DNA of 59,374 nucleotides, filler included, from Dugesia japonica (Eukaryota): assembly GCA_001938525.1 (NCBI GenBank). It is 6 parts of 6 records of this genome, joined end to end, with 100 filler letters (N's around TTAATTAATTAA, not from the genome) between each part and the next. Parts side by side here need not be neighbours in the genome. Positions count along the whole stretch, not along the records: positions 9,983 to 19,467 come from MQRL01221288.1; 5 more parts are not named here. The stretch is one strand, 5' to 3'. Shown piece after piece: positions 6,167-45,174 of this stretch. The position numbers were made by a program, and so were the translations under genes. The notes under the pieces are model-generated. The model searched no databases, had not been told where the DNA came from, and was given only the letters and a program-made list of their open reading frames with translations. How positions within the stretch are numbered: position 1 is the first letter of the stretch; each line of letters begins with the position of its first letter.

Positions 6167-7747
6167 ATGACTGATGTAATTTCAGAAAATAAACTTATTT
6201 CTAATAGTAAAAAAAGGCGTGACAGAAAAAAGAAAGCTAAAGAAAGAAAGCGAAAAGAATTCGATGTTCTTAAATTAGAATGTATAGAAATTGATGTAGA
6301 ATATCCGACTTCTTTAGATAACATTGTTGAATTTGAATTAAAAGGAAGGTTTGAAAGATTTATAAATTATGAGAAGGATGAATTGAAGAGTGATACCAGA
6401 GATGATCCTAAAAATGCAAAAGTAACAAATGCCCAATCTCTAAATGAATTACCAATGAAAGCCAGAGCAGCAGCTATTTTACAAGATGATCATGATCGTG
6501 ATGAAAATGAAGAGCCGAAAATCGGTAAGAAACAATTGAAAAGAATGAATCGTATGAGTACAGCACAGTTAAAAATCAATGTGGAACAACCGGAGCTTGT
6601 TGAAACGTGGGATTATTGCAGCAAAGACCCTCTCTTGTTATTAGAGCTAAAAAGTATGAGAAACACAGTGCCTGTTCCAAGACATTGGTGTGCTAAACGA
6701 AAGTATTTACAAGGTAAACGTGGGTTTGAAAAACCTCCTTTTAAATTACCGGAATATATTGCAAAAACTGGAATTATGGAAATGAGACAAACAGTACAAG
6801 ATAAAGACAGTGATAAAACATTAAAAACTAAAATGAGAGAGAAAATTCGCCCAAAAGTTGGTCATGTTGATATCGATTATAATAAATTGCATGATGCATT
6901 CTTTAAAGATCAAGTTAAACCTCCTCTTACAATTCACGGGGATATTTATTATGAAGGCAAAGAATTCGAAGTTAAATTAAAAGAGAAAAAACCTGGTCAA
7001 TTATCTGATGAATTGAGAACATCGCTAGGTTTGCCCACTGGTCCAAATGCAGATAAATACCCGCCACCGTGGCTAATTGCAATGCAGCGGTATGGTCCTC
7101 CTCCGTCTTACCCAAATCTTAAAATCCCCGGATTAAATGCGCCAATCCCGTACGGTTGCTCGTTCGGTTACCATGCAAACGGGTGGGGTAAACCTCCAGT
7201 TGATGAGACAGGACGGCCGATTTACGGAGAAGTTTTTCTTGATAATTTGCCTATTCCACCTCCACCTTCAGATGATGATATTGACGGCGATGAAGGCAAC
7301 AAATATTGGGGAGAAATCGAATCTGATGAGGAATCGGAAGAAGATGAAGAATCAGAAAAAGAGGAAGAGGATGACGAGATGGAATGTGANNNNNNNNNNN
7401 NNNNNNNNNNNNNNNNNNNNNNNNNNNNNNNNNNNNNNNNNNNNNNNNNNAGTGTCGGACAAGGTTTGACCACTCCGCAAAGCATTGAGTTACGTAAGAA
7501 AGCGGTGGACGAAGAGTCGATACCAATTGAGAAACCTCTTTTCCAAGTCATACCACAGATCAAAGCTGAGATCGGATCAGCAATTATGGGTTCAGAAAAA
7601 CTTTATCAAGTACCGGAAATGATGGATCTGAAAAATAAGAAGCGAATTGCACCGACTCCTTCTGGAACGACTTCTGGGCAGAAATCGAGTCAGCCGCCTG
7701 AACCAGCAGAACCGAAATCGAAAAAGCATAAAGACTTCAAATTTTAA
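6167..7747 (+). CDS. SF3B2: Splicing factor 3B subunit 2 (SAP145/CUS1 homolog)
   Basis: Hallmark DUF382 and PSP motifs: RNTVPVPRHWCAKRKYLQGKRGFEKPPFKLP, DIDYNKLHDAFF, HGDIYYEGKEFE, PPPWLIAMQRYGPPPSYPNLKIPGLNAPIP, GWGKPPVDE, and the conserved C-terminus KKHKDFKF. An N gap at 7390-7450 makes frame continuity there an assumption. TTCTAG acceptor directly before the ATG, so an upstream exon or leader is possible. Confidence 0.95.
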   Translation: MTDVISENKLISNSKKRRDRKKKAKERKRKEFDVLKLECIEIDVEYPTSLDNIVEFELKGRFERFINYEKDELKSDTRDDPKNAKVTNAQSLNELPMKARAAAILQDDHDRDENEEPKIGKKQLKRMNRMSTAQLKINVEQPELVETWDYCSKDPLLLLELKSMRNTVPVPRHWCAKRKYLQGKRGFEKPPFKLPEYIAKTGIMEMRQTVQDKDSDKTLKTKMREKIRPKVGHVDIDYNKLHDAFFKDQVKPPLTIHGDIYYEGKEFEVKLKEKKPGQLSDELRTSLGLPTGPNADKYPPPWLIAMQRYGPPPSYPNLKIPGLNAPIPYGCSFGYHANGWGKPPVDETGRPIYGEVFLDNLPIPPPPSDDDIDGDEGNKYWGEIESDEESEEDEESEKEEEDDEMECXXXXXXXXXXXXXXXXXXXXXSVGQGLTTPQSIELRKKAVDEESIPIEKPLFQVIPQIKAEIGSAIMGSEKLYQVPEMMDLKNKKRIAPTPSGTTSGQKSSQPPEPAEPKSKKHKDFKF

Positions 7748-8611: not shown

Positions 8612-9882
8612 TGTTGGGATCTTATGCAGTGGATGTTAAGGCTCAGAAAACTCATGAGACCCCAACGAGAAAAATGGTAGTAGTTTCCCAAGCTACTTTT
8701 CGTAAGAGAACCGGTGACCCTCATCCGCGCCACGGTGCAGTTCGCCTTACTTTCTTTCGGGTTCTGGGTATGATACTCGGTTGCGAGAGGTAACTTTCCT
8801 GCGCTAATATGCGGCGTGGACCAATCGCTTTATCACATCGAAATTCTATTATATTTAGACACTATCTTATCTTATCATGGTATTTAATCGTAATACTCCT
8901 TTATTCNAATGTATTATCTCTACAACTAGCTGAATGGTTTTATTACTAATGTGCAATTCTACCGTATCTAATACTATATGTTATCTCAACTATTATCATT
9001 ATCAAAATATTCCTTTGTTAGTCAAATCTAACTATTCATTTAGCTATAAGTTACTATTTACTATTAATTTTACTTTATACTTATCACTACTGTCATTATT
9101 TGTCTATAACTCAAGTCAATTACTTAAGTACCTTAGCTATTCCTATAGTTATTTCGTGATTATTTAATTACATTATTCAAATTTGGATTCAGGAACTCAA
9201 CACAACGCATTTTAAAATAAGACATTTATTGCTACAAAATTAGTTTTTATTAGTTCCATAATATTCGGCGAGCCACGCATCTACATCAACCGTATCCCAT
9301 GTTTGTATTGGGTTAGGGATAGGTGATGCTGGCGGCTGAAAAAACATGATTCTCCTGTCATCTGCTAATGGGTTTTCGATAACTTCTGGAGGGTAAGTTT
9401 TCTGATCTTTGATTTGTTTTTCTAGGAATTTAATCTTATCATCCTGTTTATTAATGGTTCGTTCTAATATACTAATTAACTGTTCCTTTGTTTCCTTCAT
9501 GCGTNNNNNNNNNNNNNNNNNNNNNNNNNNNNNNNNNNNNNNNNNNNNNNNNNNNNNNNNNNNNNNNNNNNNNNNNNNNNNNNNNNNNNNNNNNNNNNNN
9601 NNNNNNNNNNNNNNNNNNNNNNNNNNNNNNNNNNNNNNNNNNNNNNNNNNNNNNNNNNNNNNNNNNNNNNNNNNNNNNNNNNNNNNNNNNNCCTTCATAT
9701 TTAACCTGTAACAAAATAATAATAAAACATAAGTTAATTCAAAATATATTTCCCCGCAACCCTATCAATTTATCTGGGAAAACCCCTCCTAAAATAGTAA
9801 CGCATGAGAAACATTCTTAACTGGCCAAACAGACCTAATATATTATTTAAGAAACACTTTAAATAAGACATTACTCACTAAA
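8612..9882 (-). mobile_element. 3' part of a large 5' LTR (truncated by scaffold end) containing an ORF
   Basis: Ends in CCCAACA next to a PBS, with a GC-rich terminal ~200 bp. Architecture parallels 16547-17160. Confidence 0.6.
9240..9706 (-). CDS. LTR-borne coiled-coil ORF of unknown function (KIxFL family), interrupted by a gap
   Basis: TTGTTACAG acceptor at ~9707. Translation LISILERTINKQDDKIKFLEKQIKDQ..WDTVDVDAWL*, with AATAAA ~10 nt after the stop. Similar to 16742-16909. Confidence 0.5.
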
Positions 9883-9982: not shown

Positions 9983-12430
9983 TAATATATTTTTAAATTT
10001 AACGTTAATAAAATTTCGGATAAATTAAAATAAGATAAAATGTATTTATAAAATTCGACGTTAGATAAATTTTAAAATGTTTTGCAAATACTGGTATTTG
10101 ATGTTTTCCGTTTTGAATATGGAATTTTAAATTTGTTTAAGAAAACAAATTTATATGTATAGTTTTTGTTTGAATAAATTTTGTATTGAATTCGAGTTCT
10201 GATATTAATGATCAGACGAGTTTTCCAAATTCATCTAACATGTTGGCAGTGGTAAACACCTATGCGATCACAGAGAGATTGTTGCCAAAAATATTTTGCA
10301 GAGGCGATGATCTATTGAAGTTTATTAAACGGTGTGAAATATATTTTGAAGCAAAGAACATCATTGTTAAGAAAGATCAGGACCGTTGGACAACATGTAT
10401 GCTTCATGAAGATTTAATTGTAGCATATGTGAAGACCAAGAAGAAGTTGACGGAATTCGAGAGAGAACGCGATTAGCTTTTGAGAGCAAGAGAGACGTAA
10501 TAAAAGATTTACAGAATCTTTAAAGCTATCGATGTGGTGATAATGAACTTATGTTTCTTAAAAAAGTCGAAGATTTGGTCGATAAAGTTTAGCAAATTAA
10601 GAGCTGACGGAAGAAAAACTCTTATCAAAAATGCTAATAATTTGTGCAAATAGTAAAAAAGCAGAAGACGAAATAATCATGCAAAAATTTTAGAAAGTAG
10701 AAGATATTAAAGAAACGCTATCATTAGTTGAAAAAATAGAAAAAAGAGAACCTATTAACGTATTAAAGAGTTACGCAGGTGTAACACGTAGATAACGTAC
10801 TGGAGAGAGGAGACAAAATATCGAGAAGGTTGTATAAAGAACAGAATCAGAGTATTGGACATGCCAGAGTTATGAGCATACAAAAAGAGAGTGTCCCAAA
10901 AATTCTCATGTGGAATGTTGAACTTGCCACAAGAAAGAGCATTTAAGTAGAAATTGTCCAGGCAAAAAACCACCAAAATGTTTTGGATGTGGTAAGATTT
11001 TTCATATCAGAAAGAGGTTTAGAGACATTGTATGTGGTGGATGTAAAAGACCAGGTCACAGAGCAGAAGAATGTTATTCGAACATTAATAAAACTAGACT
11101 AGAAGGTAGATACAATTCTAAAAGCGAACAACAAACAAAAGATTGGAGTCGGACCAAACCAATCTATGCCATTCGAGATGAAAATGATGCTGAAAACGAA
11201 GAGATATTTTTGGGAGCATAATAGAAAATGAAGATCCGAGAAGAGAATACCCAAAAAATAGGGCTCCATCAGTAGAGGAGTTGGTCGGAGCCATTCATTA
11301 AACAAGATGCTGTTTGATTATCCTCAAGAGGCTGAGAAATGGAATGAAATGAGTAAAGTTTGAGGAAGTTTCAGTGATGCAGGAGATAACAAAGCGTAAG
11401 TGATATGAACAATTAAAGAGAAACAGAACATAGAAATTTCGTACGATAAAATGCAAGGGAGACTTAGCATTTTAGTAATGATCAAGGGCTAACAGTTTGA
11501 TTGTTTGTTAGATACAGGAGCAAGAATAAATGTGATGAGCATGAAAGGATTTAATAGACTCTGAGAAACAATGTTAGAGAAAAGCGAGGAACGATTGTAT
11601 TGCGCGAATAACAGCTCATTGGAGATGATTTGAAAGATACATGTGGAAGCTGTAGTTTTAGAGGTGTGCAAGGAAGTAACATTTATAATAGTAGAGAAAT
11701 TATTACCCGATCTAATTGGCGGAGTGGAATCCCAAAATAATTTTGGGTATCATCTTCCAACAAAGTGTAAGGCAGATATCAACAATTATCGAGAAAAATT
11801 GGTTTGCAACATCGAGTCAAAATGTGGAACACAGATACAGACGGGTGAACGATTGAGACATGCAATGGAGATATGTCAATTCATACGGAATTAGATCAAA
11901 ATTTTTGGACACGTTATCAGTAAAGAAGTTGTCAAAACAGATCTAACTAAAATAGAAGCAATTAAGAACTTTGATAAACCAAAATGTGTTAAGAAGATGA
12001 AAAGCTTTTTGGGAATTATCAATTACTATCGCAAGTTCATTAAAGATTATTCGAAAAAGCTAGATTGCTGGAACAACTGTGTAGTAGATCGAGTAACAAG
12101 AAGATTGAATGGCGAACGATTTAGAAGAAGTTTTTAATGGAATGAAAGAAGCACTAATAGTGTCTCCAATGTGTTTTCCAGATATAAATAGAGGATTTAC
12201 TTTGGACACGGATGCGAGTTTCAATACGATTGGGACAGTATTGTCTTAAAAGGACAACAATGGACAAGAAAGACTAATTGCAAATGGGTCACACGCAATG
12301 ACGAGTCACGAGAAAGGAGATTGTACTACGCGGGAAGAATTACTCGCAATTTACTATTTCTGTATTTATTTCAAACATTACATATATGGAAAGAGATTTA
12401 TCCTCAGAACAGACGATAAAGCTATAACTT
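9983..12430 (+). mobile_element. Degenerate Ty3/Gypsy LTR retrotransposon (LTR end, PBS, gag, protease, partial RT, RNase H)
   Basis: LTR end ..CATCTAACA at 10240, then PBS-like TGTTGGCAGTGG. Gag N-terminus and several CCHC knuckles (TCQSYEHTKREC, CFGCGKIFH, CGGCKRPGHRAEEC). Protease CLLDTGARINVM at ~11500. RT thumb FGHVIS..SFLGIINYYRKFIKDYS. RNase H FTLDTDAS and EELLAIYYFCIYFKHYIYGKRFILRTD. RT catalytic core is missing. Confidence 0.9.
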
Positions 12431-15072
12431 TGTATGTCTCACCGAGAATAAAAAATTATTTTTTCTGGAAATACTTATGATAATCAAATATATTCGGTTT
12501 TGTTTAACTCAGAATTAAAATCCAAACATATTTCCTATAGGGTTTGCTGAGCAAATGTTTTTGAATGAAATTTTGTGTTTTGGTTATTTTCCACAACTCT
12601 TTCTAAATCCATTAAAAGCATCGAACATATATAAGTTACTGCAAGCTAACGAATATAGTAAACAATATTTAAATTAGTTAATTTCGCAGACAATTGATGA
12701 ACCTTTTAGTGAATAATAATGTTGGGGTGAAACACCCAGTTAAGAAGAAATCAAGGCCAGGGGCCCAAATCATAAAACATCGAAGACGGTGGTTGGAAAG
12801 AAAACGCAGGGGAAAGAATATAATAATCAATCAGTAAAAGAAATCGAAAAGAAAAGCAATTATAAATAACTAATATTGTTAAAATATAACAAAAAATAAT
12901 CAATCGGAAAATAAAAATATAAAAAGAAGATGGATATGGAGATCTTGAGTGAACAAAAAATTTAACCAGCAACCATGCCAGTAATTAAAGAAAATTATCA
13001 AATTAATAATAAAAGACAAAAAAATTATTATAATTAATTTTCACAGAAAAAAATAATTAATTTGGACGGAAAAATAAATTGAAATTGAACGAAAATCAGT
13101 TTTTAGTGATTATCTCCGCTCGACATACTCACAGAGACTCGTGGAAAGAAAATCTAGAAAGAGAAAGATCTGGGGCAATAGGATTTGTCAACCCAAAAAT
13201 CGTAGCATCATCGGGAAGGTCCCTACAAGGGTTAGAAAAATGGGCCAATAAGGGGCCAGAAAAGGAAAATAAAACAAAGACGAGATCATCACATGGCACT
13301 ACAAAATTAGTCACTAATGGAAGCCAAAAAATCAATGAAAAATCTAAAAAAATTAGCACTGGAACCAATGAAAGACCATAATTTTGAATCAAAAATAGAA
13401 GCCAAATAGCAATGATGTTGAGTTGTATCTGGGAAACTATATAAGCCCCATGAAAATTAGAAGAAAAATACACATTTTTCATAAATTGTAAACTTCTGAT
13501 AGTTATTGTAGCATCTCTGAAATTTATTGGACTATCGAAGAGAAAACTTTTCTATTACTATCAACGGTGTGAATTATTTGAAAACACTTTGTTGGGCAAA
13601 TTGGTAGAATCGATCAAAGATTAATTTCGGCATAGTAACATTGGTCAATTATTCAGTGGATTTTTAACGTTAACTTATTACAGATCAAAATAGTCATGTG
13701 AACCCGAGAAAAATACTAGTGAACCATCATTCAGAATTTCGTCATAAAGAAAACAGACCTATTTACTCGTTCCCGTTGCAGAAAATCGTAATTATTCAGT
13801 AAGTATTCAGCCTGTTATAAAATTCGTTTTGAAATCATGAATTTTGTTTATGTAATAAATACTTGTCAAATGAAGTCTAGTTACTACATTATTAATAAAA
13901 TAAGTGTGGCATTAATCATTAATTTAATATTTATTTAGGATCTGTTTAAGTACTGCAAACATTTGGTTTAAACAGAAAATCATTAGTCAGTAATGACTTT
14001 CTTTCATTCTTGTTACTATTTTTAGCTATCATTGATGTGATTATGGATTAAAGGATGAAATTATCTAGTATGGTAGAGTCGTTGTTTAACCAGTAGTCAC
14101 CACACGCATTGCCATATGAACTAATCCAATCGTTAGGACTACTGCACTCATTTCACAAAGGTATGATAAATCAATAAATGACCTCATTGATAAATAACGT
14201 GACATACACACAGGACATGTGTGTATCAACAGAAATCTCTGACACAGTCATTATGCTAACAAGAATATTAGAATTGATTTACATCTTAACTAGTATCAGC
14301 TAATATCTTTATTTGTCTCATCAATAGATTCTCGACCAGAAAAAGAAGAAAAAACAACCACTTTTATGTATCAAGCAATGGCCGCTATTCTGTAAAATAT
14401 CACCTAAAGGATTTAGGGAGGCACCAATCTAATATGACTTTTTTTAACTAAGTGAAATTCCATGTTTGACTTGGGTATTCAGCCTTCACACAGATGGTAT
14501 TCGGTAATTTGATGATATTTGGAAATCATGAAAATATGGATTTAAAACAACATCAACTATAATTTCATCCTGGGACTCACACAATAATGTGGGTTGAGAG
14601 AATCAATAGCGTTCTACCATCAAGGAAAGTATATTGTTGTAATCACAATATATGTGGACTTGATTTTATCTTATTACTGATTTTGTCATATGTAGTAAAG
14701 GGTATATGGGTAATTAGATTTCAGTTGAATTATTTTGTTATTTAATGTCATTAAAAAATTTTTTTTCTTTTCATCATAATTTTATAATTAAATAAAGTTT
14801 AGCGCATGGTTGTAGTTAGCAGTTCAAAATACAGCTGTAAATGAATAACCGAGAAGGTTTTAATCCCCTACTGATAACGAGGGTTTGCTTCAGTTAATAA
14901 ACGGACGTTACCATTATATTTTCTATGATATAAAATTTTGCTAGCACATGGGGTTCACTCATCCTGTTACATTGATTCCAGCCGAAAAAAACTATTTTTA
15001 ATTACATCATTACCCACTAGGGGATAGGGTGATTCTACTACTTATTAATAATCAACTTTCATACGTTTAGTA

Positions 15073-15258
15073 ATGACAATAGAGCTCAGTTATGCCCTCC
15101 AGATCATCCGAAAGCAGCGACGAGTTGCTCGCCGAAAACAGCTGCTGGCCTACATTTTTTCTCGCAGAACCGTCGAGCATCCCGACGAGACGGATCTTAG
15201 CTGTTTCGTTGAGATGTTCCCTCTGAATGTTCAGGTGGGTATCGACACAGAAATCTGA
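15073..15258 (+). CDS. Small protein of unknown function, DETDL family copy 1
   Basis: MTIELSYALQIIRKQRRVARRKQLLAYIFSRRTVEHPDETDLSCFVEMFPLN. Acceptor AG at 15069-15070, AATAAA at 15290. Paralogs at 29741 and 30511. Confidence 0.6.
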   Translation: MTIELSYALQIIRKQRRVARRKQLLAYIFSRRTVEHPDETDLSCFVEMFPLNVQVGIDTEI

Positions 15259-15387
15259 AAGTAGTATCGTTAACGTTTTATAAAATAATAATAAACTTAT
15301 TGAATCTGTGTTGGAGTTTCTTATAGATTTAATTTATATATTAGCTAAATTCCTTTTTATAAACCTAAACCCATTTTATTTTTCTAG

Positions 15388-15724
15388 TGAATCACAAATG
15401 GGAAGTTTTGTTGGACCAACGCACTGGTCGCACAATATTTAGGAAGTACACGAATCCCTACAATCGGATTGATGGCGTCTTAGTAGATTACTCGAATTTA
15501 CCTAAGAAGGAGGCTGAGAACGAGCAGGAATGGGTCGAAGCCGAGCGCCAGGCTTTTTATACTTGAAATGGCTCGGATCGAACCTGAGAAGTATATCATT
15601 CCATCACCGCTTTCCCGCCTATAAATACTGGGGAAATTGGGACTGCCAGCGAATGGTGTTCAGGTCCATTAGTGATCCCTATCTCAGTCGAGCACTTACC
15701 ACCCTACACGAGATTATACAGTGA
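15388..15724 (+). pseudogene. NPYN-family module (frameshifted)
   Basis: Acceptor AG at 15386-15387. Translation KWEVLLDQRTGRTIFRKYTNPYNRIDGVLVDYSN, with a second internal RMVFRSISDPY repeat. AATAAA at 15729. Confidence 0.5.
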
Positions 15725-16107
15725 CATAAATAAAACATTATGGGATCTGAGAAATATCGCTGACGGGGGCGGATCCGAGAATGATGCACCAAACAATGGG
15801 ACTTGACTTTTATAATGTCATTAGTTATTTTTATCAAACGCTGTAGTAATAATAATAATTTGTTGTATTTTCAGCACCATTCTTATATCTTGTAGTTTAA
15901 TTAGGATTTTAATTTTTATCAAATAGGAATTAGTCGTAAGAAATATCTCGTTTAACTCGAGACTGATAATTTTTGAAGGTGTGTTCTTTTGTCTTCACTA
16001 TTGAATTATAAACCTCGCAAATGTTTCATTTTTATTTAGTCCATTCCTCCTTAACTCGTACCATAGCACTCACCAAAAAGTTGCGAGAAGTCGACGAGGA
16101 CTAAGAA

Positions 16108-16398
16108 ATGACTTGGGACCTATACCGTCTAGCGAAAAGGCGATGGAAAGCAGACGTTGCTAATTCCACTAGTAAAGTGAAAAGATATAAGGCCAAGTGC
16201 CTCACTTTTAAAAAGGAAGTCGAAGCCTCACACGACCAAGAGTGGGTGTGGAAAAGACAGATAGAGTCTTTCAGCGAAGTCATCCGGTCCTACCAAGACC
16301 GAGAGAATAAACTGGTCGATGATATTTTGAAATTACGGAATGATCGGCCGCTTGAACCCCTTTTGGTAGACAAGAGTACTCAAACTTCGCGGTCTTAA
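16108..16398 (+). CDS. Basic coiled-coil ORF of unknown function inside the LTR-like unit
   Basis: 96-aa ORF, GC-richer than its flanks, with heptad-like character. Acceptor AG at 16038-16039 and AATAAA at 16428. Confidence 0.5.
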   Translation: MTWDLYRLAKRRWKADVANSTSKVKRYKAKCLTFKKEVEASHDQEWVWKRQIESFSEVIRSYQDRENKLVDDILKLRNDRPLEPLLVDKSTQTSRS

Positions 16399-16741
16399 CT
16401 TTTTTAAATGTTGTGTTTTGTCTTTTAAATAAATATCGGGTGTCTAAAGTAATTCATTTGCGTTCATACAGGTGACGGTGATGGGGTCCCCGTTTAATTT
16501 TATGGGATAAATAAATTATATTCTGTCATAATTTCTTATTCGTTTAGTGCCAAGGATCCGATTCCCTACAAGTCTTAAGCGATGTCACCACCTGATACAA
16601 TAATTATTGGTAGAGAGACATGTTAAACGACAGAAGTAAATGGCCTTACTAAAACATCTGTCACAACGTAATAAGTTAATCAAAAAGATGGATGTGATCG
16701 TGAAAAAGTAGAGTGACCTGGCAACGCAAACCAAACAACTC

Positions 16742-16909
16742 ATGCAAAATAAGATAGATTTTTTGAAACATTATATCTCCGACCTGTCTCGTCAACTAGG
16801 CCACATGTCCTGTTTACAATGGGACGATAACGACGACACGGCGGTGTTCAATTTTATACCAGAAGAGCCTACCCAGTGGTTAGACACGGGGGCTATGGAT
16901 CTAATGTAA
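16742..16909 (+). CDS. KIxFL-family small ORF (likely 3' part of a module starting at acceptor 16547)
   Basis: MQNKIDFLKHYISDLSRQL..DDTAVFNFIPEEPTQWLDTGAMDLM*, with AATAAA at 16917. Resembles ORF 9240-9500(-). Confidence 0.45.
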   Translation: MQNKIDFLKHYISDLSRQLGHMSCLQWDDNDDTAVFNFIPEEPTQWLDTGAMDLM

Positions 16910-18289
16910 ATTTAGAAATAAATAAATCTTAGTTTTTAATTTTTCCTAATCGTTATAAGTGAATTTGAAGAAGGGAAACCAAAGAACCCAAACTAAAGGT
17001 GTACGAGTGTGAACCTCCCGTAAGGGTTGGAGGTCAACCGCTCAACATTGAATATCTAACACATGGACGTTAGATTTAAATTCTTGAAAGGAATCCCCTG
17101 AGGCCCGTTTTTCCCCAGCCAGCGTTCCTTTTCACCGTCAGCTCAGGTGGAACCCCAACAATAATATTGATTTCGACAAAAAGGTTGAAACTTTATTGAA
17201 TAATTATAAATCTAATAAGACTTTGTCAAATGCTGGGTCATTTATTTTATCGATTCTTGAAGCTTTTAAAAGGTTTAAGTATATAAAAAATATATAAAAA
17301 GATATCAAATATGAAAACAAACAAATGAAATTATTTTCCGTTGATTTTTTTGTAACCTAAATTATCAAACATGTTTATGGAATTTAATTAAGATAATTAG
17401 TGTCTAGTGTTAGATACTTGTTTACAATTATAAATTAAATAAAAACAATCTACACTTTTTAATGCATTATCATTTATTTAAAAAAATGAAATATATTGCA
17501 ATCAATATAATTTTATCTTCAGTTATATGACAATCTTAGTTCTTCAGTTTCTTTAAATGATTTTGAAAAGATGCGTTCCAGATCAAATGTACCAGAAGCC
17601 AAAAATAGTAAGTATTTCTAGTATTTAAGCCATTTAATAAATTAAAATTAAAGCAAATTATTAATAATAACAAATTAATTAAATTATTAATTACAATTTT
17701 AAATGGCATGAATTTCATGATTTAAATCAAAAATCACATTCTACAATAGCCAAAATATTTAATGTTTTTTAGTTAAATTAGCAGTGAAATGTAAAAATTA
17801 TTATTAGATTTCTAATCATTAAGCTATTAACGCCCAAAATAAAACTACAATTGAAAATACTGTTTATTTACTATTTATTTAAACAAAACAAAAAATAGTT
17901 TATTAAAAGAAATTCAAAAAAATAAATAAAATATTACCTAGCATGCAGTAAATGAAAAATATCGTCACAATAATATTTTGTTTTAATACAGTTTAATTGT
18001 AGACAATAATCAAAAATAAATTTATCTATATTATTATTTTTAAGAAAAATATAAATATCTTACCTGAATAATCTTATAATTTTTAATTTTTATATAGCAA
18101 ACTCTATTTTTAAAAAATTGAGCTTTTAATTCTGAGTTCAATGATTCCAAATTTGAAATTGTACGATAAACATGGACCGAGAATATTCGAATTTCCAACG
18201 AGCTAAAATTCGACCAATAAAATTCGAAATCGAAAATATTATTTACTAAATCAAAATCCTACATTTTTAAATAACTCAAATCTTTCGAT

Positions 18290-21059: not shown

Positions 21060-22650
21060 TTTTCATAAACCCTATATACTCATAAACCATGCAATACATG
21101 GTTGCTATGTTAATAATACAAGGTAACTATGCAAATAATACACTCGTAAGCCTTAAATTACACGGTTAATATGTAAATAATACACTTTTAATATTTAAAT
21201 AATAAAAGGTAACTATGCAAATAATACAATCATAAACATTATATTACACGGTTAATGTGTAAATAATATACTCATAAACCCTATAATACACGGTTACTAT
21301 GCAAATGATACAAAGTAACTAGGTAAATAATACACTCATAAACCCTAAAATACATGGTTAAATTGTAAATAATAAAAGGTAGCTATTCAAATAATATAAT
21401 CATAAAAACTATAATTCAGGGTTACTATGTAAATAATACACTCATAATCCTTATAATACATGGTTGCTATGTAAATAATATAATAATATACTCATAAACT
21501 CTATATACTTATTAACATAATCATAAACATATTTTCTTATAAGTTGTTATATAGACTTATTAGTTATGTATGAAAATGTTCCATGAATTTATGATTTTAT
21601 TTTGAAAAGGTTTTTTATTATTTTGTATAGAAACATTCCCAGCTAATATGTTTTTATGAAAAATTGTCACTACTTATATGATTTTATAGAAAAATTGACT
21701 AAGTCTTGTAAAATTTTATTATAAATAAATACTAAATTAAAAACTAAAAAATAAAACAAAGACTGAATAATAATACATTTATTTCTGAACATAAATCACC
21801 GGAAACAAAAATAATTGTCATAATTGAGAAGATAATTCTGATGGTTCTACATGGTAATCATCAGATTAAACTTAGTGCACCCAAAACAATCAGGTGCGCA
21901 AATATCAGCTGCCATATAGTAATATACCACTACTTCTGGAAGAAACGGTTGTATTTCTTCGTCCAGGATCCCCAATTCTTCGCATATTTCAACCAGCATT
22001 CCTGAATTCAATTTATTAATAAAATTAAAAAATTAATAAAAATCAAACCTATCTTACTAAACTAAAGATATATATGAAAATGTTACACACTTATAAATCA
22101 TATACACTCAAAATCCCTATTATATACATACAAATATTTACTTACAAAGTATTTATACAGTAATTTTCAGTAATATATGAAATAGTTTCTACACTCATAC
22201 ATCATATAAACTCGAAAAACCTATACTACATAGTTGTTCAGTAAAAAATACAATGCAAATATATAAATATTACACTCTATTATGTTATAAATGTTATAAC
22301 CCTATATAACATTGTTACTATGTATAAAGTAAGCCTTAAATTACACGTTTGCTATATATATAATTCCTTTAAAAGTCTTATATTTTATAAACCTTATATT
22401 TTATGGTTGCTATGTAAGTATAACACTCATAAACTTTATAATACATGATTACCAAGTAAATAATACCAGTTAACTATGCAACTAATACAAAAAGAAATAC
22501 ATTAAACAGTTGTTATTTACATATTACATAGTACCTAAGCAAATAATACACTTGAAAACCTAATATTACACGGTTACTATGTAAATAATATACTCATAAA
22601 CCTTATATTTAATGGTTGCTATATAAATAATACAAACATAAATTCTATTC
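21060..22650. repeat. ~42-bp minisatellite (GGTTACTATGTAAATAATACACTCATAAACCCTATAATACAC) with 21-bp half-units, in two blocks
   Basis: About 10 copies at 21060-21510 and further copies at ~22200-22650. Confidence 0.85.
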
Positions 22651-22729
22651 AGTCATAAACATATTTAATTATTAAGTATTTTTACAATAGTTTTAGGTTA
22701 TATATGTTTCTCACTCGTAAAATCCTATA

Positions 22730-23600: not shown

Positions 23601-24310
23601 GAGTGAGAAAAGAAAATCACCAGTATGAATCTACTTACGTAGGGCAAAGATTCTTCTAACACATTCGCTGAAGTATGGGTAAGAAAAAATTATTATGAAA
23701 ATGTAAAATTTATTTTCAAAAAACTATTACAATAAATATATCATTTATAATTATAAATAATTATATTTTATTTTATAAAAATATTTGGTTATAGGTTAAA
23801 GATTTATTTGATATTAGTCTCACACAAATCATGCCGCATTAATATAGCCGTCTGTCCATCATGTTTTCTAATAATACTTAACGGTTATTAAACCAATATT
23901 AATCGCTATAGTTCTACTCTTCTTCAAAATGCTTTCTACTTTTTCAGCTATTAAATATTTCAGTACTTTGCACCATGAAAAAGTTTTATTTCTATTAGCC
24001 ATATTTTATTCGTAGTCAACAGCAAAGTTGAGAAAATTGATGGATGAGTTGCAATTCTAATTCTACAGATATTTGGACTTCCAAATTCTAAGGTTAGTGG
24101 GGCGAGCAGTACTAAAACCTGTTGATGATGTTATACGCAGTGAACATTCGTTTAAGGATTCAATCAAAAATCAAGTAATGAATATGTTGTTGAATGTGAA
24201 GAAAAATCTACTTAATGCTTTAAAGGAAGTTTTTAATGGACAGCATAAAAGTGAAATACGTTAACAAAAAAATAAAATAATATCGACTATAAGCAAAAGA
24301 CGGTGATTAA

Positions 24311-25578
24311 ATGGAACCATCTTTCCAAAAAAGCATGTATACCAAAAAAACTGAGTTATCGTATTTTGACCATAATATACTACATGTTATGGTTGAAAGC
24401 TTAACGTTTAAAGAAATTTACTAAAATGATTTAATAACTGGGTATGCTGGACAACAAATTGAGTTCAATATTATTGGTTCAGATAATGAGTACTTGGATT
24501 TCAATGATACATTGCTAATTATCAGAATGAAGACTGTTAAAAATGATAAAAAGGATTTTTCATCAACTGGCAATACTGATATGATTCCATTTAACTATTT
24601 CTTTCACATTATATTCAAAGAAGCATCATTAACGCTAACTAATATTAAGGTTGAAGATACAAATGATATGTATATGTAAAATGCGGGAATTGGAGGAGCT
24701 TTGAATTTTGGATCAGATACAAATAACACGTTCTTTGAAGTCTTTGGTTATCATAAAGAAGATAACAAGAGAAAAGGTGGGATTAAAAAGTCTGTCAAAC
24801 TGACGCTCTGTGGTGCACTTAATTTAGATTTTTATGACCTCTCAAAGTATTTGTTGCCAGGATTCAATCAAGTTGACGAGAAATATTGGTTCAGTAATTT
24901 ACAAATATACTAAATGCACTGGTGAAACAGCTGAGATTAATCCACAACGATATATTATAGAAGCAAATTTAGTAGTGTGAGGTGTTTGCGTTGATCAATC
25001 GGTTATAACTGAACACCTTCAAGGATTGGAACATCAAAATGCAATCTAAATTTTCCAAATTACAAACGTCGTACATTTTAAAATTCCAAAAAACTTAAAT
25101 GGAGAAAATAAAGATAATCTATTTTCAGGTGAAAGATTACCGAAATTGGTTTTGATTGCTTTTCAATCATCGAAACAAGCAAGTTGTGATTATGGGTTAT
25201 TTTGCTTGACATTTTCAAATTTCAGTGTAAAGTCAATATGCTTGGCAAGAAGGGTTGATTACCGAGAAACATATTTTACTGACTTTGATACCGACTATAC
25301 CAAAGCATATGTACAATCAATTATTCGTAACATGGGTCAGTTAAATGTAGATCAAAATAATGGTATTACAATGAAAGAATTTAAAGATTTATATACGTTA
25401 TACAATTTTGTATTGGCTCCGGACATTGCTTTTAATCAACCGTATTTACCAAAACATAGAAATTTCAAGTTGAATGTGTGATTCCATAAAGTCCTGGAAG
25501 AATCAGTAACAATGTATGCACATAGAGTATTTGATTCGGAAATGTCAATCACCACAAATGGATTAGTATGTGTGTATT
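24311..25578 (+). pseudogene. Polinton-type double-jelly-roll major capsid protein, pseudogene
   Basis: ATG at 24311. Fragments KTELSYFDH, IEFNIIGSDNEYLDFNDTLL, LPKLVLIAFQS, YVQSIIRNMG..NNGITMKEF and NFVLAPD. Many stops and frameshifts. Confidence 0.85.
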
Positions 25579-25621
25579 GCATAGCAAAAATTATTAATGG
25601 TTTTTTATAAAGAGATTTGTT

Positions 25622-25975
25622 TTGATTGATATTACTTTTCAGATTGAAGCAATATTGAAACGTGAGTTGGTTAGTAGCCGATTCAAAATAGTGTATCTAT
25701 TGTGACGATTTCCAGACTTTTTCCCAAGTGAACCTTATGTAATCAATACACATACATCGAATTTAGATGGTGAGCAATAAATTGCCATTTCTGTNAAACC
25801 AAATTTTACTCGTTTATTTGATTTAATAGGTTTATTTTATTCACCAACAATGGTAACAAAATTGGATCGTATGCAACAGCATGCCGAACACAGTCAAATC
25901 ATGAATCAGATTCCTTCGACATTCTTATGTGGACAATATGGTATTGAATTGCTCAAAATGGAACCGTCATTAATT
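25622..25975 (+). pseudogene. Adenain-like cysteine protease, pseudogene
   Basis: YVINTHTSNLDGEQ*IAI (catalytic HW lost), LFD and FLCGQYG. Homologous to 41616-41972. Confidence 0.8.
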
Positions 25976-28895: not shown

Positions 28896-29086
28896 GATTT
28901 GGAGAAGATTTTACTGAAGAAAAAAACCAAGCAGCGAAAAATAACTGAGTTTATTTTAAAAAAATTAATTTATTGATTAGTAAAGTCTTTTTGATATTTT
29001 TTTAAAGTATCTGTTAAAGAGAAATATCGGTTATANAGAACATTTTTTCAAGTCCCAAAAATATTCTCTTTAAGCGGAATCTACTG
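28896..29086 (+). mobile_element. Tigger/pogo 3' end
   Basis: DLEKILLKKKTKQRKITEF (KQxxIxxFF tail), then TIR ..CTCTTTAAGCGGAATCTACTG followed by TA. Confidence 0.7.
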
Positions 29087-29740
29087 TATTTTGAAATTAT
29101 TATTATTATTATCACTATTACTATTATTATTGTTATTATACTCCTAATGATATTAGTACTATTAGTTTCATTATCAACATAATTATTACTGTTTGTTTTA
29201 ATTCTTTTATTATTATTATGTCACTCGTTTAAAGGTTATCATTAATTTGGTTAGTAACAGAAACACCAACATTACAATTCCCAGCATCATCGTCATTATG
29301 GATTTTAGTTAGGATCTTTATTGCCGATGTGTTAATTATCATCACGATTCTGTGTATTAACTGCGAATACTACTATCAGTGACGAGTGTTCTTATTATGG
29401 TAGCCTGCATAGCGTTAAGATTATTAAACAACCACCCTAACATCTATCATCCTGGTAGTACTCGGCGTTATCCGTAAGGACTTTAGTATTTACCTTAATA
29501 CATTCATGATCAGCCTTCTCATTATTATCGATTTTACTAAAATAAGTAATAATGTTAGGATTAATAGATTAAAAATTATAACTCACAATATTATTTATGA
29601 TTTAGGATTACTATTCAACTATAATAATTTCGTGATTAATGTTTTGGCTACGATAAAATATAATATCATTCTAACTCATCAATTTTCTTATGATGCCTTA
29701 ATTTATTGCAGTTTCGTTGTGATAATTTAATTTGTTGTAG

Positions 29741-29936
29741 TATAATATCTGAGATTCTGCAGGACACTATAAGATTCATTCGACAAGAAAGAGAAAGGTC
29801 ACGCTGCAAACAGTTGATTGGACATATTTTGGCGCCTGATCAGATATTGTTCCTTGATGAAACCGACTTAATCTTTTTTGTCGAGTTATTTCCATTAGCG
29901 GCAAAGATGAGGGTGTATTTGGACGCCCCCTCATGA
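29741..29936 (+). CDS. DETDL family copy 2
   Basis: After acceptor TTGTTGTAG: ILQDTIRFIRQERERSRCKQLIGHILAPDQILFLDETDLIFFVELFPL. Followed by an NPYN module (TSRMVFKRPANPYNTLAGVLVDRSN, ~29955-30050) and AATAAA at ~30235. Confidence 0.55.
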
Positions 29937-30510
29937 TTTTAATGCATTTTCTGATTTGACGAGCCGAATGGTATTTAAGAGACCAGCCAACCCATATAAT
30001 ACCCTAGCTGGTGTCCTCGTAGACCGTTCGAATATGGACCCCTCCTAGGCAGATTTTCAACGTGGCCGTGATATGTCTGAACGATGGTTGCATCGTCACT
30101 GGCCCAATGAAAGAACTAAATCCCCGATCACTCCGTCTACTCCAACGCTAGCCGATTTGGAAGATTATCTTCAGCCCCCATGTTCATCATCTTAGTGACT
30201 TTTACCATTAATCTGCAGTGTTGCATGTGACTCGTAATAAATTTTATTAGTTGTCTCTATCGTTACATAATGCTTTATAAAAATTAATCCAATGATCAAT
30301 TTTATTTATTTATTTACGGGGGCTATCATTATGATAATCATAGTTATTCTTAACATTTTTCTGAGGACATCATTATTGCAGGATTACCGTTATGCGTACT
30401 AATAGTAATCATTATTAATCCCATCTTTAAAATTCAGGTTCCCGAAGACTTTCACAACCAAATCGTCGGCAGTTCCAGCTACTAACTTTTATAATTTTCT
30501 TTCTAGAATT

Positions 30511-30687
30511 ATGCCTGATGTTATATATAATACATTGCGATTGATCCACAAAGAGAGGAAGACAGCCCGTCAGCGACAATTAATCGCACATATTATGTTC
30601 CCAGGAAAGGTAAGGCATCCAGATGAAACAGATCTAGCCTGCTTGGCTGAGATGTTACCCTTAAACCCGGATTGTAACAAATCCTGA
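30511..30687 (+). CDS. DETDL family copy 3 (58 aa; absent from the ORF track)
   Basis: MPDVIYNTLRLIHKERKTARQRQLIAHIMFPGKVRHPDETDLACLAEMLPLNPDCNKS*. Branch-like ACTAAC at 30481, acceptor AG at 30505-30506, AATAAA at 30720. Next acceptor at 30820-30821 opens an NPYN module (TGRIMFRHLRKPYNRD). Confidence 0.6.
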   Translation: MPDVIYNTLRLIHKERKTARQRQLIAHIMFPGKVRHPDETDLACLAEMLPLNPDCNKS

Positions 30688-32998
30688 ACTTTTGCTGTTG
30701 TTGTATATTTAATAGTAATAATAAACCGCTCAGTTAATTTATTGAGTGTTACATTATTCCTTTGATTTATTTGAACGATCTTTTATTTACCCACTATTTA
30801 GTTAATTAATCTCTTTTATAGTGTCCGAATATAGATGGCGACTGATATGCACTCCACCGGTCGAATAATGTTCCGTCATTTGAGAAAACCCTATAATCGG
30901 GATGCAGAAATCTAGGCCGATATTATACATGAGATATTAATTTGAAAGTAGGCAACATCGATTGAATCAAAAAACGAAAGTCAAGTAACTGATAATAATG
31001 TTGAAAAGTAGTTTAAATAGTCCGAATTGTAATGCGTGGGAAATGAAATGATGAATTATTCAAAATTCTGAATGTTCAAATTGATCGAAAATGAATGTTA
31101 TTGAATAAACAAACGACAATTTATCAGAGAAGAACAATAATGTTTATCAAATATATCAAGGATATAATTATCATTATGAAATTTTGTTGTTTCGGGAGCA
31201 CGGTCGGCGAATTTTAGTATATAACTGGAAGATTATTACTTTAAATTTAATATACTTTGGAAAATTATTGATCATGAAATGGCACTCCAATTATGTAAGT
31301 ATTTATTGCATTGTAATTCTTATAATGTTCATTTAAAATTTGGCGCATTAATATTTTTTATTGATATGCGCATAATTAATAATTTATTTTATTATTATAA
31401 TGTTCGACCAGTGTATATAGTATATGTTGGATTAAAGGAATTTTGGTAAATGATTTTAGTAAATACATTTTAGTAAATTTTGAGTAATGTTTTTGGTAAA
31501 CAATTTGATTAAAGAAATCAAGTAATGCGTTTTCTGTAACGATTTTGGTAACAGTTGAATTAACATTGAAGTAATAGTTTTATTAATTGAGCACTGGAAT
31601 TTATTTTGACTTATATTTTATATAATTTTGTTGATATGAAATTAATTAAAGTTGTGCTAAATAGATCATTTAAAATCGACCTGTGTATAATAATTATAAA
31701 AAAAATTGTAACTTATGTATAAGTATTTAGTTAATTAAATGCTCAAAATGATATAATTATTATAATTCAAGCATGTAGAGAAATAGAAAACGCAGAGCGC
31801 ATTCAGATAAACTATGGTGATATCCAAAATAAGTTTTTAAACTGCAATAATTATTATTTTAATGAAATTGTGGCGCATGTTTTTTCTACATACAATCACA
31901 CCGTTAATAATATAAATAATCTGTAGTGATATAAACCCCCCTTTATTTTAAAATATATTTATGTTAAGATTGCCTGTGTACATTCTTTAAAGTTAAAACA
32001 AAACTTTTGTCACTTGGGAAGAACACCATTTTTACATGTTTTAAAATTTATTTATTCAATGTTACGCTTTTAAATTATTTTCTACAATGTGTTGAAATTT
32101 TAGCTTCCTTACTATATTTCACATGTCTTCGAATAAAAACGAGCTTTGAATCCTGATTCGCTATTGTTGAAAACGAGAACTTTCGACTAGGGAAGCTGAA
32201 AAATAGATATTTGGTGAATGCAAAATGGTCGTCTACGAAAACTGTTTCACGTTGGTAAAATTATTTTCATACTAGTGACATTAATTTGGAAGACTAGCTA
32301 TATTTTACACCATTTAACTTTAAACTTTCCTTATCAATGTAGCAGTTTTAACAAGGTTGTCGATTCAAGTCATTTGAGGAAGTTGAAGAAGCATGAAAAT
32401 AATTCTTCGAATCAAAACCCAAATAATCGTAATTTAATAAGATTCGGACGACTAGATTTGATTGCAAAAATTTGTTGAGAATGATGAACTTTATTTTGAA
32501 AAGAAGTAATTATTTTTATAGCAAAAAGAAAGATATGGATTGGTTTCATAAACCTTTCCAAAAATGTCTAGTAACTTTGCTCTATCTCAATAATCTGAAT
32601 TAATTAATAAGATGAATCATTTCACTTTATATTTTTTAAATTTCTCTTTTGCATAACTCTTTTCATCTTACAGAATCAGTTTATCCAATATATAAAAATA
32701 AATTAACAATAGAAGCAATATTTGAAAAAAAGAAATAAAATTTCAAAATCTGTAACTTATTAAAAAAAAATATTTACTCATTAAAATACAAAAACGAAAA
32801 GGAAAATAAACAAAATATAAAAAAGAAAATCAAAACTGTATATATAAGGAAATTCCACAATTTATCCAACAAAATGTCTGACAAATAATCCGAAAATTAT
32901 ACAGAAAAAATAAGAAACGTTTACAGTCAAAATTCAAAGAATAAAATCTAAAAAGCAAAAAAATATAATTAATAATACAATAAGTCAAACAAGAATTT

Positions 32999-39956: not shown

Positions 39957-40304
39957 TATAGTCGTCCACAAATGGGTTGAGACTTGCCATATTTTATCGG
40001 TAGTCAACAACAGCAAGGTGGTGGAAATTGTCTGCATAGAATTGGACGTTTTGCAATTCCAATTTTGCAGAAATTTGGACTTCCAATTGCAAGGTCAGTG
40101 GGGCGAGCAGCACTAAAAACTGTTGATGATGTTATAAGCAAGAAGCAGTCATTTAAAGAATCAATCAAGAACCAAGCAATGAATATGTTGCCGGATGTAA
40201 AGGAAAATGCACTTAATGCATTAAAGAAAGTTGTTGGTGGACAGGATGGCAATGGAATACGTAAACGAAAAAATAAAATAAAATCGACTATAAACAAAAG
40301 ATGA
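39957..40304 (+). pseudogene. Small basic Gly-rich Polinton virion (core/membrane-lytic-like) protein with QxGxG motifs; 5' truncated
   Basis: YSRPQMG*DLPYFIGSQQQQGGGNCLHRIGRFAIPILQKFGLPIARSVGRAALK..GQDGNGIRKRK. Amphipathic helix and basic tail, directly upstream of the MCP. Confidence 0.7.
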
Positions 40305-40311
40305 CGATAGG

Positions 40312-41548
40312 ATGGAACCATCTTTGCAAAGTAAGTATGTATGCCGGAAAAACTGAATTATCGCTTTTTTACCATAATATTCCACTGGTTGTTGTTGAAA
40401 GTACCACATTTGAATAAATCTACCCGAAAGATTCTATAACTGGGTATTCTGGACAAAAAATTGAATTCAATATTATTGGTTCAGATAATGATTACTTGGA
40501 TTTGAATAATACGTTGCTCATTATTAAAATGAAGTCTGTGAAACATGATGGAACGGATTTTGCATCAATTGATACTACCAATATGATTCCTTCCGATTAT
40601 TTGCTTCACACTCTATTCAAAGAAGCATCATTAACACTAAATAATGTAAAGGTTTAAAATACAAATGATACGTATATACAAAAGGATCGGATACAAAAAA
40701 ACACTTTTCTTGAAGCCATTGGTTATCATAAAGAAGATGACAAGAGAAAATGTTGAATTAAAGCGTCTGCAAAGCTAACGCTTTGTGGTGCACTTAATTT
40801 GGATTTCTTTGATCAACTAAAGTATTTGTTGCCGGGAGTCAATGTGACAATCAAATGGACGAGAAATGTTGGTTAAGTAATTTACAAATATATCAGGGGT
40901 ACTGAAACAGTTAATTTGAATCCACAACCGTACATTATAGAAGCAAAATTAGTAATGCGACGTGTTTGTGTTGATCAGTGGGTTATGATTGGACATCGTC
41001 AAGGATTGGAACATCAAAATGCAATTTACCTTTTCCAGAAAACAAAAATTGTGCATTTTACAATTCCAAAGAACTCGCGTGGAGTATATAAAGATAATCT
41101 CTTTTCCGATGAACGATTAACGAAATTTATTCTGATTGCTTTCCAATCATCAAAACAAGCCAGTGGTGATTATGGTTCATTTTGTTCGACATTCTCAAAT
41201 TTCGGTGTAAAATCAATATGCTTGGCGAGAAACGTTGATTATCGAGAAACATATACTACTGACTTTGATACCGAGGCATATGTGCAATCGATTATTCGTA
41301 ATATAGGTCTGTTGAATGAAGATCGAAACAACGGTATTACTATGAAGGAATTTAAAGATTCATGTACGTTTTTCACCTTTGTATTGGCTCCGGACTTTGC
41401 AGTTGATCAACCGCAATTGCCAAAAACCGGAAATCTCAAGTTGGATGTGCGATTTCATACAGCCTTGACGGTATTAGTGACAATGTATGCATATGGAGTA
41501 TTTGATTCGGAAATTCAAATCACCAAGAATAGAGTAGTGATTGTATAA
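40312..41548 (+). pseudogene. Polinton-type major capsid protein (PY/hexon-like), with a few stops and frameshifts
   Basis: N-terminal C.KTELSLF..VVESTTFE*IYP..IEFNIIGSDNDYLDLNNTLL. C-terminal intact 210-aa frame EAKLVMRRV..LTKFILIAFQ..NGITMKEF..FVLAPD..GNLKLDVRF..YGVFDSEIQITKNRVVIV*. These match the Maverick MCP pattern. Confidence 0.9.
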
Positions 41549-41615
41549 ACAATACATACATGTATATGTGTATTCCATAGCATGAAGTATGTATTGTATT
41601 TATAAATAAATTTTA

Positions 41616-41972
41616 TTGATTAATAGTACTTTTCAGATTGAAACAATATTGAAACGTGATTTGGGCAGGAGAAGATTTAAAGGAGAATATCCACTAGAAC
41701 GATTATCGGACCTTTTACAAAACGAATGCTATGTAATCAATATACATACCTCGAATTTGGATGGTGAGCATTGGATTGCTATTCATTTCAAATCAAATAT
41801 TATTCGTGTATTTGATCCTATAGGTATGTTTTATCCACCATTGCTGGTAACAAAATTGGAGCGTATGCAACAACGTGTCAAATACAATGAAGTCATGTTT
41901 CAGAATCCATTGACATTTTTATGTGGACAATATTGTATTGAATGGCTNNNNNNNNNNNNNNNNNNNNNTTAA
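41616..41972 (+). CDS. Adenain-like (C5 family) cysteine protease of Maverick/Polinton
   Basis: YVINIHTSNLDGEHWIAI (His), VFDPIG (Asp), FQNPLTFLCGQYC (Gln/Cys). Catalytic set intact. Start codon unclear and end lies in a gap. Confidence 0.9.
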   Translation: MINSTFQIETILKRDLGRRRFKGEYPLERLSDLLQNECYVINIHTSNLDGEHWIAIHFKSNIIRVFDPIGMFYPPLLVTKLERMQQRVKYNEVMFQNPLTFLCGQYCIEWXXXXXXXX

Positions 41973-41996
41973 TGTGATTATCAATAAATATTTAAA

Positions 41997-42458
41997 ATGA
42001 CTGTGTTTTTTATTGATTATGAAGCCTTTCAGGATAATAATGGTGACTATCTAATTAAAGAATTATGTATAATGGATCTTGATAATATTCTTCAACCGTT
42101 TTATTACATGTTTGCCATGACAGAATCAATGGGTAGTTTATCAAAATCTGCTNNNNNNNNNNNNNNNNNNNNNNNNNNNNNNNNNNNNNNNNNNNNNNNN
42201 NNNNNNNNNNNNNNNNNNNNNNNNNNNNNNNNNNNNNNNNNNNNNNNNNNNNNNNNNNNNNNNNNNNTAAATGGAAAGAAAATAAATACTCTCAAGAAAT
42301 ATTTCCCGAATCTTCGAATTGTCAATTATAACTCTGATGAGTCTCCTCAATTAAATATACCAGATAATATTTCTTGTCCATAATATAATCATGGAGATTA
42401 TTGTGCATATGAAAAATGTTTAAAACTGTGTGTACATTATCTATCGTCATGTAAATAA
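41997..42458 (+). pseudogene. DEDD/RNase H-fold nuclease-like Maverick accessory ORF
   Basis: N-terminal FIDYEAFQ..YLIKELCI. Premature TAA at 42381-42383, then in-frame NHGDYCAYEKCLKL (C..H..CA motif) to a stop at 42458. Frame across the gap is assumed. Confidence 0.6.
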
Positions 42459-44048: not shown

Positions 44049-44479
44049 TCATTCAATCGTTGAATAAGTGTTATAATCATTGTTCATAATTGGAGCTTGG
44101 TCATCTTCTTCTTGGAATTTAGATTGGTACATCGAGGTGGTGTCTCCATAAATTAACTTATAAAGCCAAATTCTACCTTGGACAAAAATGAATAAAAATA
44201 ACTGAACTAATATCGACATAATTATAACACATATTACTGCAACAATTGCTCGACTTGGATACTTCCAATATAATGCTTCATATATATACGGTTTATCGTT
44301 TGGACCTAAACCTCCTGCGCTGTAAAAAATTCCCAACAGTACGGTATATAATATTCCAACAATAAATGGATATATAAAATGAAACAGACGAATCGGTATT
44401 GCACATATTGCAAGATCAAATATAATAAGAGCAGCATTTAAGCCATGTTTTAATTTACTTTGAGTAGTATTGAAAATTT
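44049..44479 (-). CDS. Terminal exon of a rolling-stone-like multi-pass membrane protein
   Basis: TTTTTTTAG acceptor ending at 44480. Open 143-codon frame KHGLNAALIIFDLAICAIPIRLFHFIYPFIVGIIYTV..GGLGPNDKPYIYEALYWKYP matches the rolling stone H..N..P.RL.H..YP..YIY..L.W..P pattern. Upstream exons not found in this scaffold. Confidence 0.8.
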
Positions 44480-45174
44480 CTAAAAAAAATAAGTAAATTT
44501 CAGCATAAATAATAGATAGATTTCATATTAAAATAGAGTTGTTAGTAGTTTTAAAAATTTGCAAATAATTTTAAAATTTAATGCAATGTTATTAGTTTAA
44601 ATTTTTTAATGTAAAAAATTAGTAAAAAATTTAAATAATTAAAATTTATCGCTTTTTTTTTAAATTACTGTAAATTCGAAGTTTTAGATTTAAAAAATAT
44701 ATTTTTAATAAATATAATAAATTTGTTTAAATTTATTATTTATTCAAAAATATAAATTGGGAAAGGCAAGTTTTGAAAGAAGCGTTTAAAAAGATAGAAG
44801 AATTGATTGTAATTGAAATAAAGTATTGAATGAAAAGTCTTGTTTTAATTGATTTAAATGAAGAAAAAAACTAATAAAACTAACAAGAGTAAAGCAATAA
44901 AAAAATACAAAAGAATAGATTCTGCGACAAAACTTATATATGTATAATAAAAATTATCAATACATTCCAGATTAGTTAATTTATCTGAGTATTAGAAAGA
45001 TTCTTATTATAGAAATAATAGTTCTCTTCATTACAAAGTAGATTGATAACCATGTCGACTTTGTTTTGATAGGAATATTNNAGTTAATTATTTATAATTA
45101 TAATTACAATTCTCCACTTATAATTTAAATAGTTTGAATAATAAGTACAAAATGCTCTGATTAACAATAAATGA

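Follow-up and report, generated by a model that had tools for sequence, protein, structure and literature searches.

The open reading frame (ORF) at 15073–15258 encodes a member of a real, undescribed microprotein family, referred to here as DETDL. We consider it rather probable that this ORF is one of a set of accessory genes carried as a cassette by a mobile element whose copies are decaying here; the likeliest candidate is a large Gypsy-type LTR retroelement. We are fairly confident that the battery formed by DETDL and a second ORF family, PYN, is a mobile-element cassette; whether the element carrying it is of the LTR class is about evenly balanced. The window, by which we mean the whole stretch of 59,374 nucleotides of Dugesia japonica DNA that was analyzed, holds three copies on the + strand: copy 1 at 15073–15258, copy 2 at 29745–29936 and copy 3 at 30511–30687.

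The three copies are homologs of about 60 codons with 39–47% amino acid identity. In a tblastn search with copy 1, copy 3 scored 57 bits (E 3e-14) and copy 2 scored 39 bits (E 6e-8), and the next match had E 0.98. When 200 shuffled queries were used as a control, nothing else in the window scored above 24.3 bits. An earlier sequence-only reading of the window had described three related stretches with DETDL, and all three are present with the DETDL codons that it quoted. Its details needed some correction. The second copy had been placed at 29741, which is the first base after an acceptor-like AG; the homologous frame runs from 29745, where there is no ATG. The spacer before DETDL had been given as 13–14 residues and is 13 in all three copies, as the alignment is ungapped. 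Additionally, the motif itself is less strict than claimed: the T is not invariant, and the outside homolog P0004 reads DELDL.

To describe selection on the family, we aligned the three copies over 51 codons with 0 gaps. There are 20–24 identical residues, of which 14–17 are encoded by different codons. Identity at codon position 2 is 36–38 of 51 (71–75%), while identity at position 3 is 13–18 of 51 (25–35%), against a random expectation of 0.23–0.26 (position 2 versus position 3, Fisher p 1e-4 to 9e-6). In a codon model, omega values of 0.07 and 0.15 fit nearly equally and a likelihood ratio test against omega 1 gave p=1e-11; the branches are long and the likelihood profile is unstable below 0.1. 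The copies were chosen for protein likeness, which biases the estimate toward low dN/dS. We nevertheless accept past selection, because third positions that are saturated while the frame stays open would be difficult to explain in another way. Strong past purifying selection on the DETDL protein is supported, in agreement with the proposal made from the kept motifs: dN/dS is 0.07–0.15, far below 1, and position 2 identity greatly exceeds that at position 3. This selection lies in the past, and its most likely target was a mobile element.

Database searches returned very little. A profile search of 1.84 billion protein representatives gave three hits, of which one, P0004, is a true homolog; the other two, P0005 and P0006, are tandem-repeat proteins in which weak stretches had been summed, and were discarded. 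P0004 is a protein of 60 amino acids from a single 1041-nt Logan contig, is 46–50% identical to the DETDL copies and begins at the same Met. Word-indexed protein searches gave no hit with DETDL alignment A1 or with the ORF at 16108, and P0004 only with alignment A2. The DETDL protein has no match in Pfam, a PDB sequence search gave a best E of 0.39, and the ESM Atlas held no usable match for P0003 or P0004. Foldseek with the DETDL model (best E 5.4 and 3.4; a short helical model gives little power) and a VIA fold comparison (best Z 4.7) led to no fold call. No relatives of the cassette were found in viral contigs, metagenome contigs or phages, an exact look-up of four window ORFs gave no match, and Rfam gave 0 matches over 8000–34000. 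A match to a described transposon protein domain, which the sequence-only reading had named as evidence against its proposal, was looked for and none was obtained. No description of the family was found in the literature, and Repbase or Grohme et al. 2018 may already annotate these ORFs.

The copies differ in their state of preservation. Copies 1 (61 aa) and 3 (58 aa) are intact, each with an AATAAA about 30 nt past the stop (at 15290 and 30720), while copy 2 is an open frame without a start codon at the homologous place, where related copies carry one. Each frame starts 2–4 nt past an acceptor-like AG (15069–15070, 29739–29740 and 30505–30506, the last with a branch-point-like CTAAC); as background, of the 1932 ATGs that the window contains, 54 show an acceptor-like site no more than 5 nt away. 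Upstream of copies 2 and 3 lie tracts rich in ATT, ATC and ACT (29080–29700 and 30320–30500), which read as Asn/Asp-rich decayed minus-strand frames; the part at 30388–30500 is common to related contigs.

DETDL is followed by PYN, a second conserved ORF family (TGRxxF...PYN, E 2e-7), in the same fixed order in all copies, and the PYN cores show the same pattern of low third-position identity. PYN copy 1 (15388–15806, +) is an exon that opens AG/TG, the slash marking the exon boundary, and has a 139-codon frame with 2 internal stops. PYN copy 2 (29950–30195, +; AATAAA at 30236) lacks the 5' end and the acceptor and has 1 internal stop, and PYN copy 3 (30822–30915, +) opens AG/TG but is frameshifted and truncated. 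The PYN core lies 383 nt from the DETDL start in copy 1, 378 nt in copy 3 and 247 nt in copy 2. Since a contig from run X1 carries DETDL then PYN and has 249 letters in a stretch that counts 108 in copy 2, or 141 more between the two ORFs, we attribute the shorter distance in copy 2 (∼140 nt less than in copies 1 and 3) to loss of spacer.

After PYN, the copy 1 battery continues with three further GC-rich exons split by AT-rich spacers, all acceptor-led and on the + strand. The exon at 16040–16398 appears coiled-coil-like by eye and has 119 codons with 1 stop; its ATG-led part is 16108–16398, with an AATAAA at 16428. The exon at 16548–16909 opens AG/TG and has 120 codons with 3 stops and an AATAAA at 16917, and the exon at 16960–17204 opens AG/TG without a clear frame. 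For all three long exons tested, stops are least frequent in the frame that begins 2 nt past the AG, 1–3 against 7–11 in other frames (PYN copy 1, 8 and 8; 16040 exon, 8 and 9; 16548 exon, 11 and 7), indicating that the downstream exons are old genes, now broken. An AATAAA lies within 60 nt of 6 of 8 ORF ends, where the background is 0.17–0.21. Elsewhere, at 9240–9706 on the minus strand, an acceptor-led small ORF followed by AATAAA has a cassette-like style, with a coiled-coil-like appearance by eye and an acidic, Trp-containing tail; the ORF contains an N gap, and no homology to the cassette exons was detected.

The window as a whole has 27% GC, sparse coding, a CpG observed/expected ratio of 0.98 and AAT microsatellites; the AT richness, the microsatellites and the lack of CpG depletion point, with fair probability, to a planarian-like animal. 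It also contains an intronless, compact SF3B2-like ORF of 526 aa with DUF382 and PSP domains (6167–7747), hAT transposase remnants (dimerisation domain, BED finger) together with a rolling-stone coding exon (1452–2018, 47559–49061 and 44049–44522, all on the minus strand), and a composite tandem array with units of 22, 42, 64 and 106 bp (21074–21521 and 22387–22675).

We also searched sequencing runs for the cassettes. Run X11, whose type is not on record but which covers spacers and ORFs alike, as for DNA, gave 96 contigs at ≥80% identity to 29700–30960, 72 of them below 90%. Its summed depth, which is not a copy number, peaked in the DETDL ORFs, at 134 and 191, and was 16–47 over spacers and 7–8 for own-locus contigs. 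One related contig matches 30508–30691 only, nearly exactly the exon of copy 3. Among the matches listed, 13 variant places in copy 2 fall at third (6), first (5) and second (2) codon positions and are uninformative. The polyA runs contributed 3 and 5 reads on 29700–30960 from 13.6 and 13.2 million records, all less than 95% identical to the locus, and 14000–17300 drew 51, 5 and 4 reads in three raw runs, mostly at 16997–17218. No read at ≥99% identity to these loci was present in the part searched (6–26% of each run) of four raw polyA/cDNA runs. The DETDL/PYN family is multi-copy, more conserved over ORFs than over spacers, and weakly transcribed from other loci. High dispersed copy number with low expression is expected of silenced giant LTR elements, and both were found. 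Two short motifs within the 16960 exon, at 17077–17116 and 17161–17204, recur in many polyA reads, and in contigs of very high depth, that come from other loci. They may be a signal conserved within the element family; they have no Rfam match, and the folding of 17000–17210 does not exceed that of shuffled sequences (z −0.48).

These results bear on whether DETDL is instead a lineage-specific host microprotein family in birth and death, with its own promoter for each gene. Such a family would show low dN/dS, and copies 1 and 3 do carry their own ATG and AATAAA; a related contig has a TATA-like box upstream, and P0004 is a stand-alone homolog of 60 aa. However, third-position GC is 0.42–0.56 in cassette ORFs against 0.21–0.25 in two host genes, about twice as high and not a host-like codon composition. 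This doubled GC, the linkage to PYN and further decayed ORFs in fixed order, the many diverged copies and the scarcity of polyA RNA lead us to prefer a mobile element, and we regard the host family as unlikely. Thus, of the diverged paralog family originally proposed, the homology and the selection stand, but the linkage, GC content and decay are not the behavior of free-standing host paralogs.

The arrangement of the exons suggests how a mobile-element cassette of this kind could be expressed. By a fixed rule, the window contains 17 sharp AT-to-GC acceptor-like sites, 5 of them on the cassettes' sense strand. An opening TG occurs at 4 of these 5 sites and at 1 of the 12 others (background 0.065), and in one related contig the fifth, too, starts with TG. 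The pattern was noticed post hoc, and since two of the four sites are homologs of each other, 3 of 4 independent sites remain (p about 0.001). Four of the five downstream exons are of the AG/TG type, and in three of these the TG is in the frame that is conserved or least interrupted; the frame shifts early in PYN copy 3 and is unclear in the 16960 exon. A start codon would therefore form at TG-opening exons upon splicing to a leader ending in A. We envisage a single promoter and a short leader that would be joined, in each transcript, to one out of several alternative last exons, all of them with separate polyA sites. An ATG is already present in DETDL exons, whereas AG/TG exons would gain theirs (A/TG) from the leader. 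We somewhat favor such shared-leader splicing onto alternative last exons. The only AGTRAG donor candidate upstream is at 13798, a motif that is not rare (29 in the window), and the few RNA reads include no GT-AG joint into any cassette acceptor. In one related contig a TATA-like box lies just upstream of copy 3 and could indicate a separate DETDL promoter.

Two other readings of the same exon boundaries were weighed against shared-leader splicing. A stop, an AATAAA, a short spacer and an acceptor make up the layout of an operon, and the cassette shows it, as would an operon-like polycistron resolved by spliced-leader trans-splicing. In the accessible part of one report, flatworms trans-splice and the reported leaders end in ATG (PMC12582326). 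Placed on the four AG/TG exons, however, an ATG-ending leader would give an immediate stop in two and out-of-frame peptides of 7 and 15 residues in the other two, making this reading very unlikely as long as the host is a flatworm. Alternatively, DETDL could be a single exon of a gene for a longer protein, in which splicing would join it in frame with PYN and others, as a donor-like CAG/GT near the end of copy 1 and the shared phase 1 of the downstream exons would allow. This is more improbable still: copy 3 does not conserve the donor, the ATG follows the acceptor by 2 versus 4 nt so that the phase differs, the stop codons have almost equivalent positions, P0004 has 60 aa and starts from the same Met, and an all-length profile search gave no credible longer homolog. 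For shared-leader splicing itself there is a described parallel: in the env gene of springer-clade Gypsy elements, which are insect endogenous retroviruses, the start codon is completed only via splicing to a short leader, according to the available part of that report (bioRxiv 2023.08.03.551782). The published case, as far as it is described there, concerns AU/G and one env gene, whereas here A/TG starts would apply to several small non-env exons.

The identity of the carrying element was approached through its surroundings. In the short, gapped contigs of the window, nothing linked the cassette to an LTR, a primer-binding site, a terminal repeat or a pol gene, and no long direct repeat was seen around either cassette. 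The only gag-pol near the cassettes is a small decayed Gypsy element at 10174–∼13890, upstream of copy 1; none was seen beside copies 2 and 3. By eye, this Gypsy element has zinc knuckles, protease and RT/RNase H, with a short insertion at ∼12434–12544 and a likely LTR end at ∼13890. It is apparently separate from the copy 1 cassette, from which it differs in composition.

Many acceptors and many polyA sites are also found in adenovirus late units, which the cassette layout resembles. This would suit a cassette from an integrated DNA virus or Polinton/Maverick-type element with adenovirus-like alternative 3' splice and polyA sites, and two Maverick-like fragments do occur in the window. The first, however, is cut off from the two cassettes by assembly gaps, and the second lies across a gap at a distance of 9 kb; with no relatives in viral contigs or phages and no viral fold match, we hold this origin to be improbable. 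The Maverick/Polinton-like fragments (23998–25953 and 39986–42400) are 77% identical over 2 kb and by eye appear capsid-like and exonuclease-like, with a weak adenain match (E 0.08).

Among described elements, the closest case to DETDL, judged by general traits, is sORF1 of the Drosophila MDG1 group (412, Mdg1). As presented in the available part of its description, sORF1 is a nuclear helix-turn-helix protein with low dN/dS and its own polyA site (bioRxiv 2025.03.14.642691). DETDL would likewise be a small accessory ORF, with low dN/dS, a predicted helical structure and a putative polyA site of its own. The likeness is confined to these general traits: sORF1, in the same excerpt, is about 110 aa, unspliced and one of two sORFs, whereas DETDL is about 60 aa, acceptor-led and one of at least five. 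That small accessory ORFs in retroelements may be genuinely functional is illustrated by the nuclear sORF1 and fusogen-like sORF2 of MDG1 elements. The DETDL protein is not an MDG1 sORF2 or FAST-like fusogen; its Met-led sequences have no transmembrane segment and, lacking Gly2, it has no N-terminal myristoylation motif.

In planarians, Burro elements carry accessory ORFs, as stated in the accessible portion of their description (PMC6431247). The giant Gypsy elements Burro and GYPSM1 of Schmidtea mediterranea share this feature with the DETDL battery, but none of the described Burro domains (MATH, BIR, BCL2, ankyrin, env) was matched in the ORFs scanned. In the roughly 400 of 485 characters available of the GLT2 probe from S. 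mediterranea (PMC8532177 Table S1), an ORF end, an AT-rich spacer, an AG/TG acceptor and a coiled-coil-like frame can be made out by eye. The GLT2 primer has no match in the window, and no sequence link to Burro or GLT2 was found. Within the portions available of the reports cited here, the described elements have one or two accessory ORFs, fewer than the DETDL battery.

To consider what the protein may do, we modeled four sequences with AlphaFold, which predicts a helix at residues 3–29, a loop, and a second helix at 37–48 (mean pLDDT 80, pTM 0.52). Residues 9–24 contain 6–8 Arg/Lys (net charge +4 to +7), and residues 36–51 have a net charge of −3 to −4. The model and the charge counts agree with the earlier description of a basic helix followed by an acidic motif. 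The invariant residues I12, R16, R20, Q23, L24 and I28 appear to be spaced as a single helix face. Since DETDL lies at the start of the predicted second helix, it may as likely be a helix cap as a binding motif. The best 19-residue hydropathy is 0.04–0.76 in three Met-led sequences and 1.52 in copy 2; there is no membrane segment in the Met-led sequences and no Gly at position 2. On the predicted structure, the DETDL protein is likely a nuclear regulator of the element: the Arg/Lys-rich helix 1 would bind the element's nucleic acid, while the acidic-capped, hydrophobic helix 2 would bind a protein partner.

Rev and Rex proteins, with which complex retroviruses export their RNA, have an Arg-rich helix and an acidic, export-signal-like tail. 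DETDL similarly has an Arg-rich helix, then an acidic stretch, then a hydrophobic motif whose spacing is export-signal-like (residues 42–51 in 4 of 4 sequences), a loose pattern that also matches elsewhere. Pro in the last spacer is disfavored in export signals. DETDL has a Pro there, and the Pfam, PDB, Foldseek and VIA comparisons, of little power for so short a helical model, gave no sequence or fold match to Rev or Rex. Internal acceptors and polyA sites in such numbers mean that the element must have some route to full-length RNA; a Rev-like RNA export role for DETDL is, by analogy, a doubtful possibility. Equally tentative is the full proposal, in which a mobile element would make at least five microproteins from one leader, with separately polyadenylated last exons and A/TG starts, and DETDL would be a convergent Rev-like adaptor letting full-length RNA bypass splice and polyA sites.

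As the discovery of a host microprotein, DETDL is weak, since its loci look like decaying insertions. As a family, it has one homolog among 1.84 billion representatives and was kept under selection until silent sites were saturated. The architecture of the battery is of greater interest than the DETDL family itself: if the reading of a shared leader and split start codons is true, gene expression in the style of complex viruses arose in an invertebrate element.
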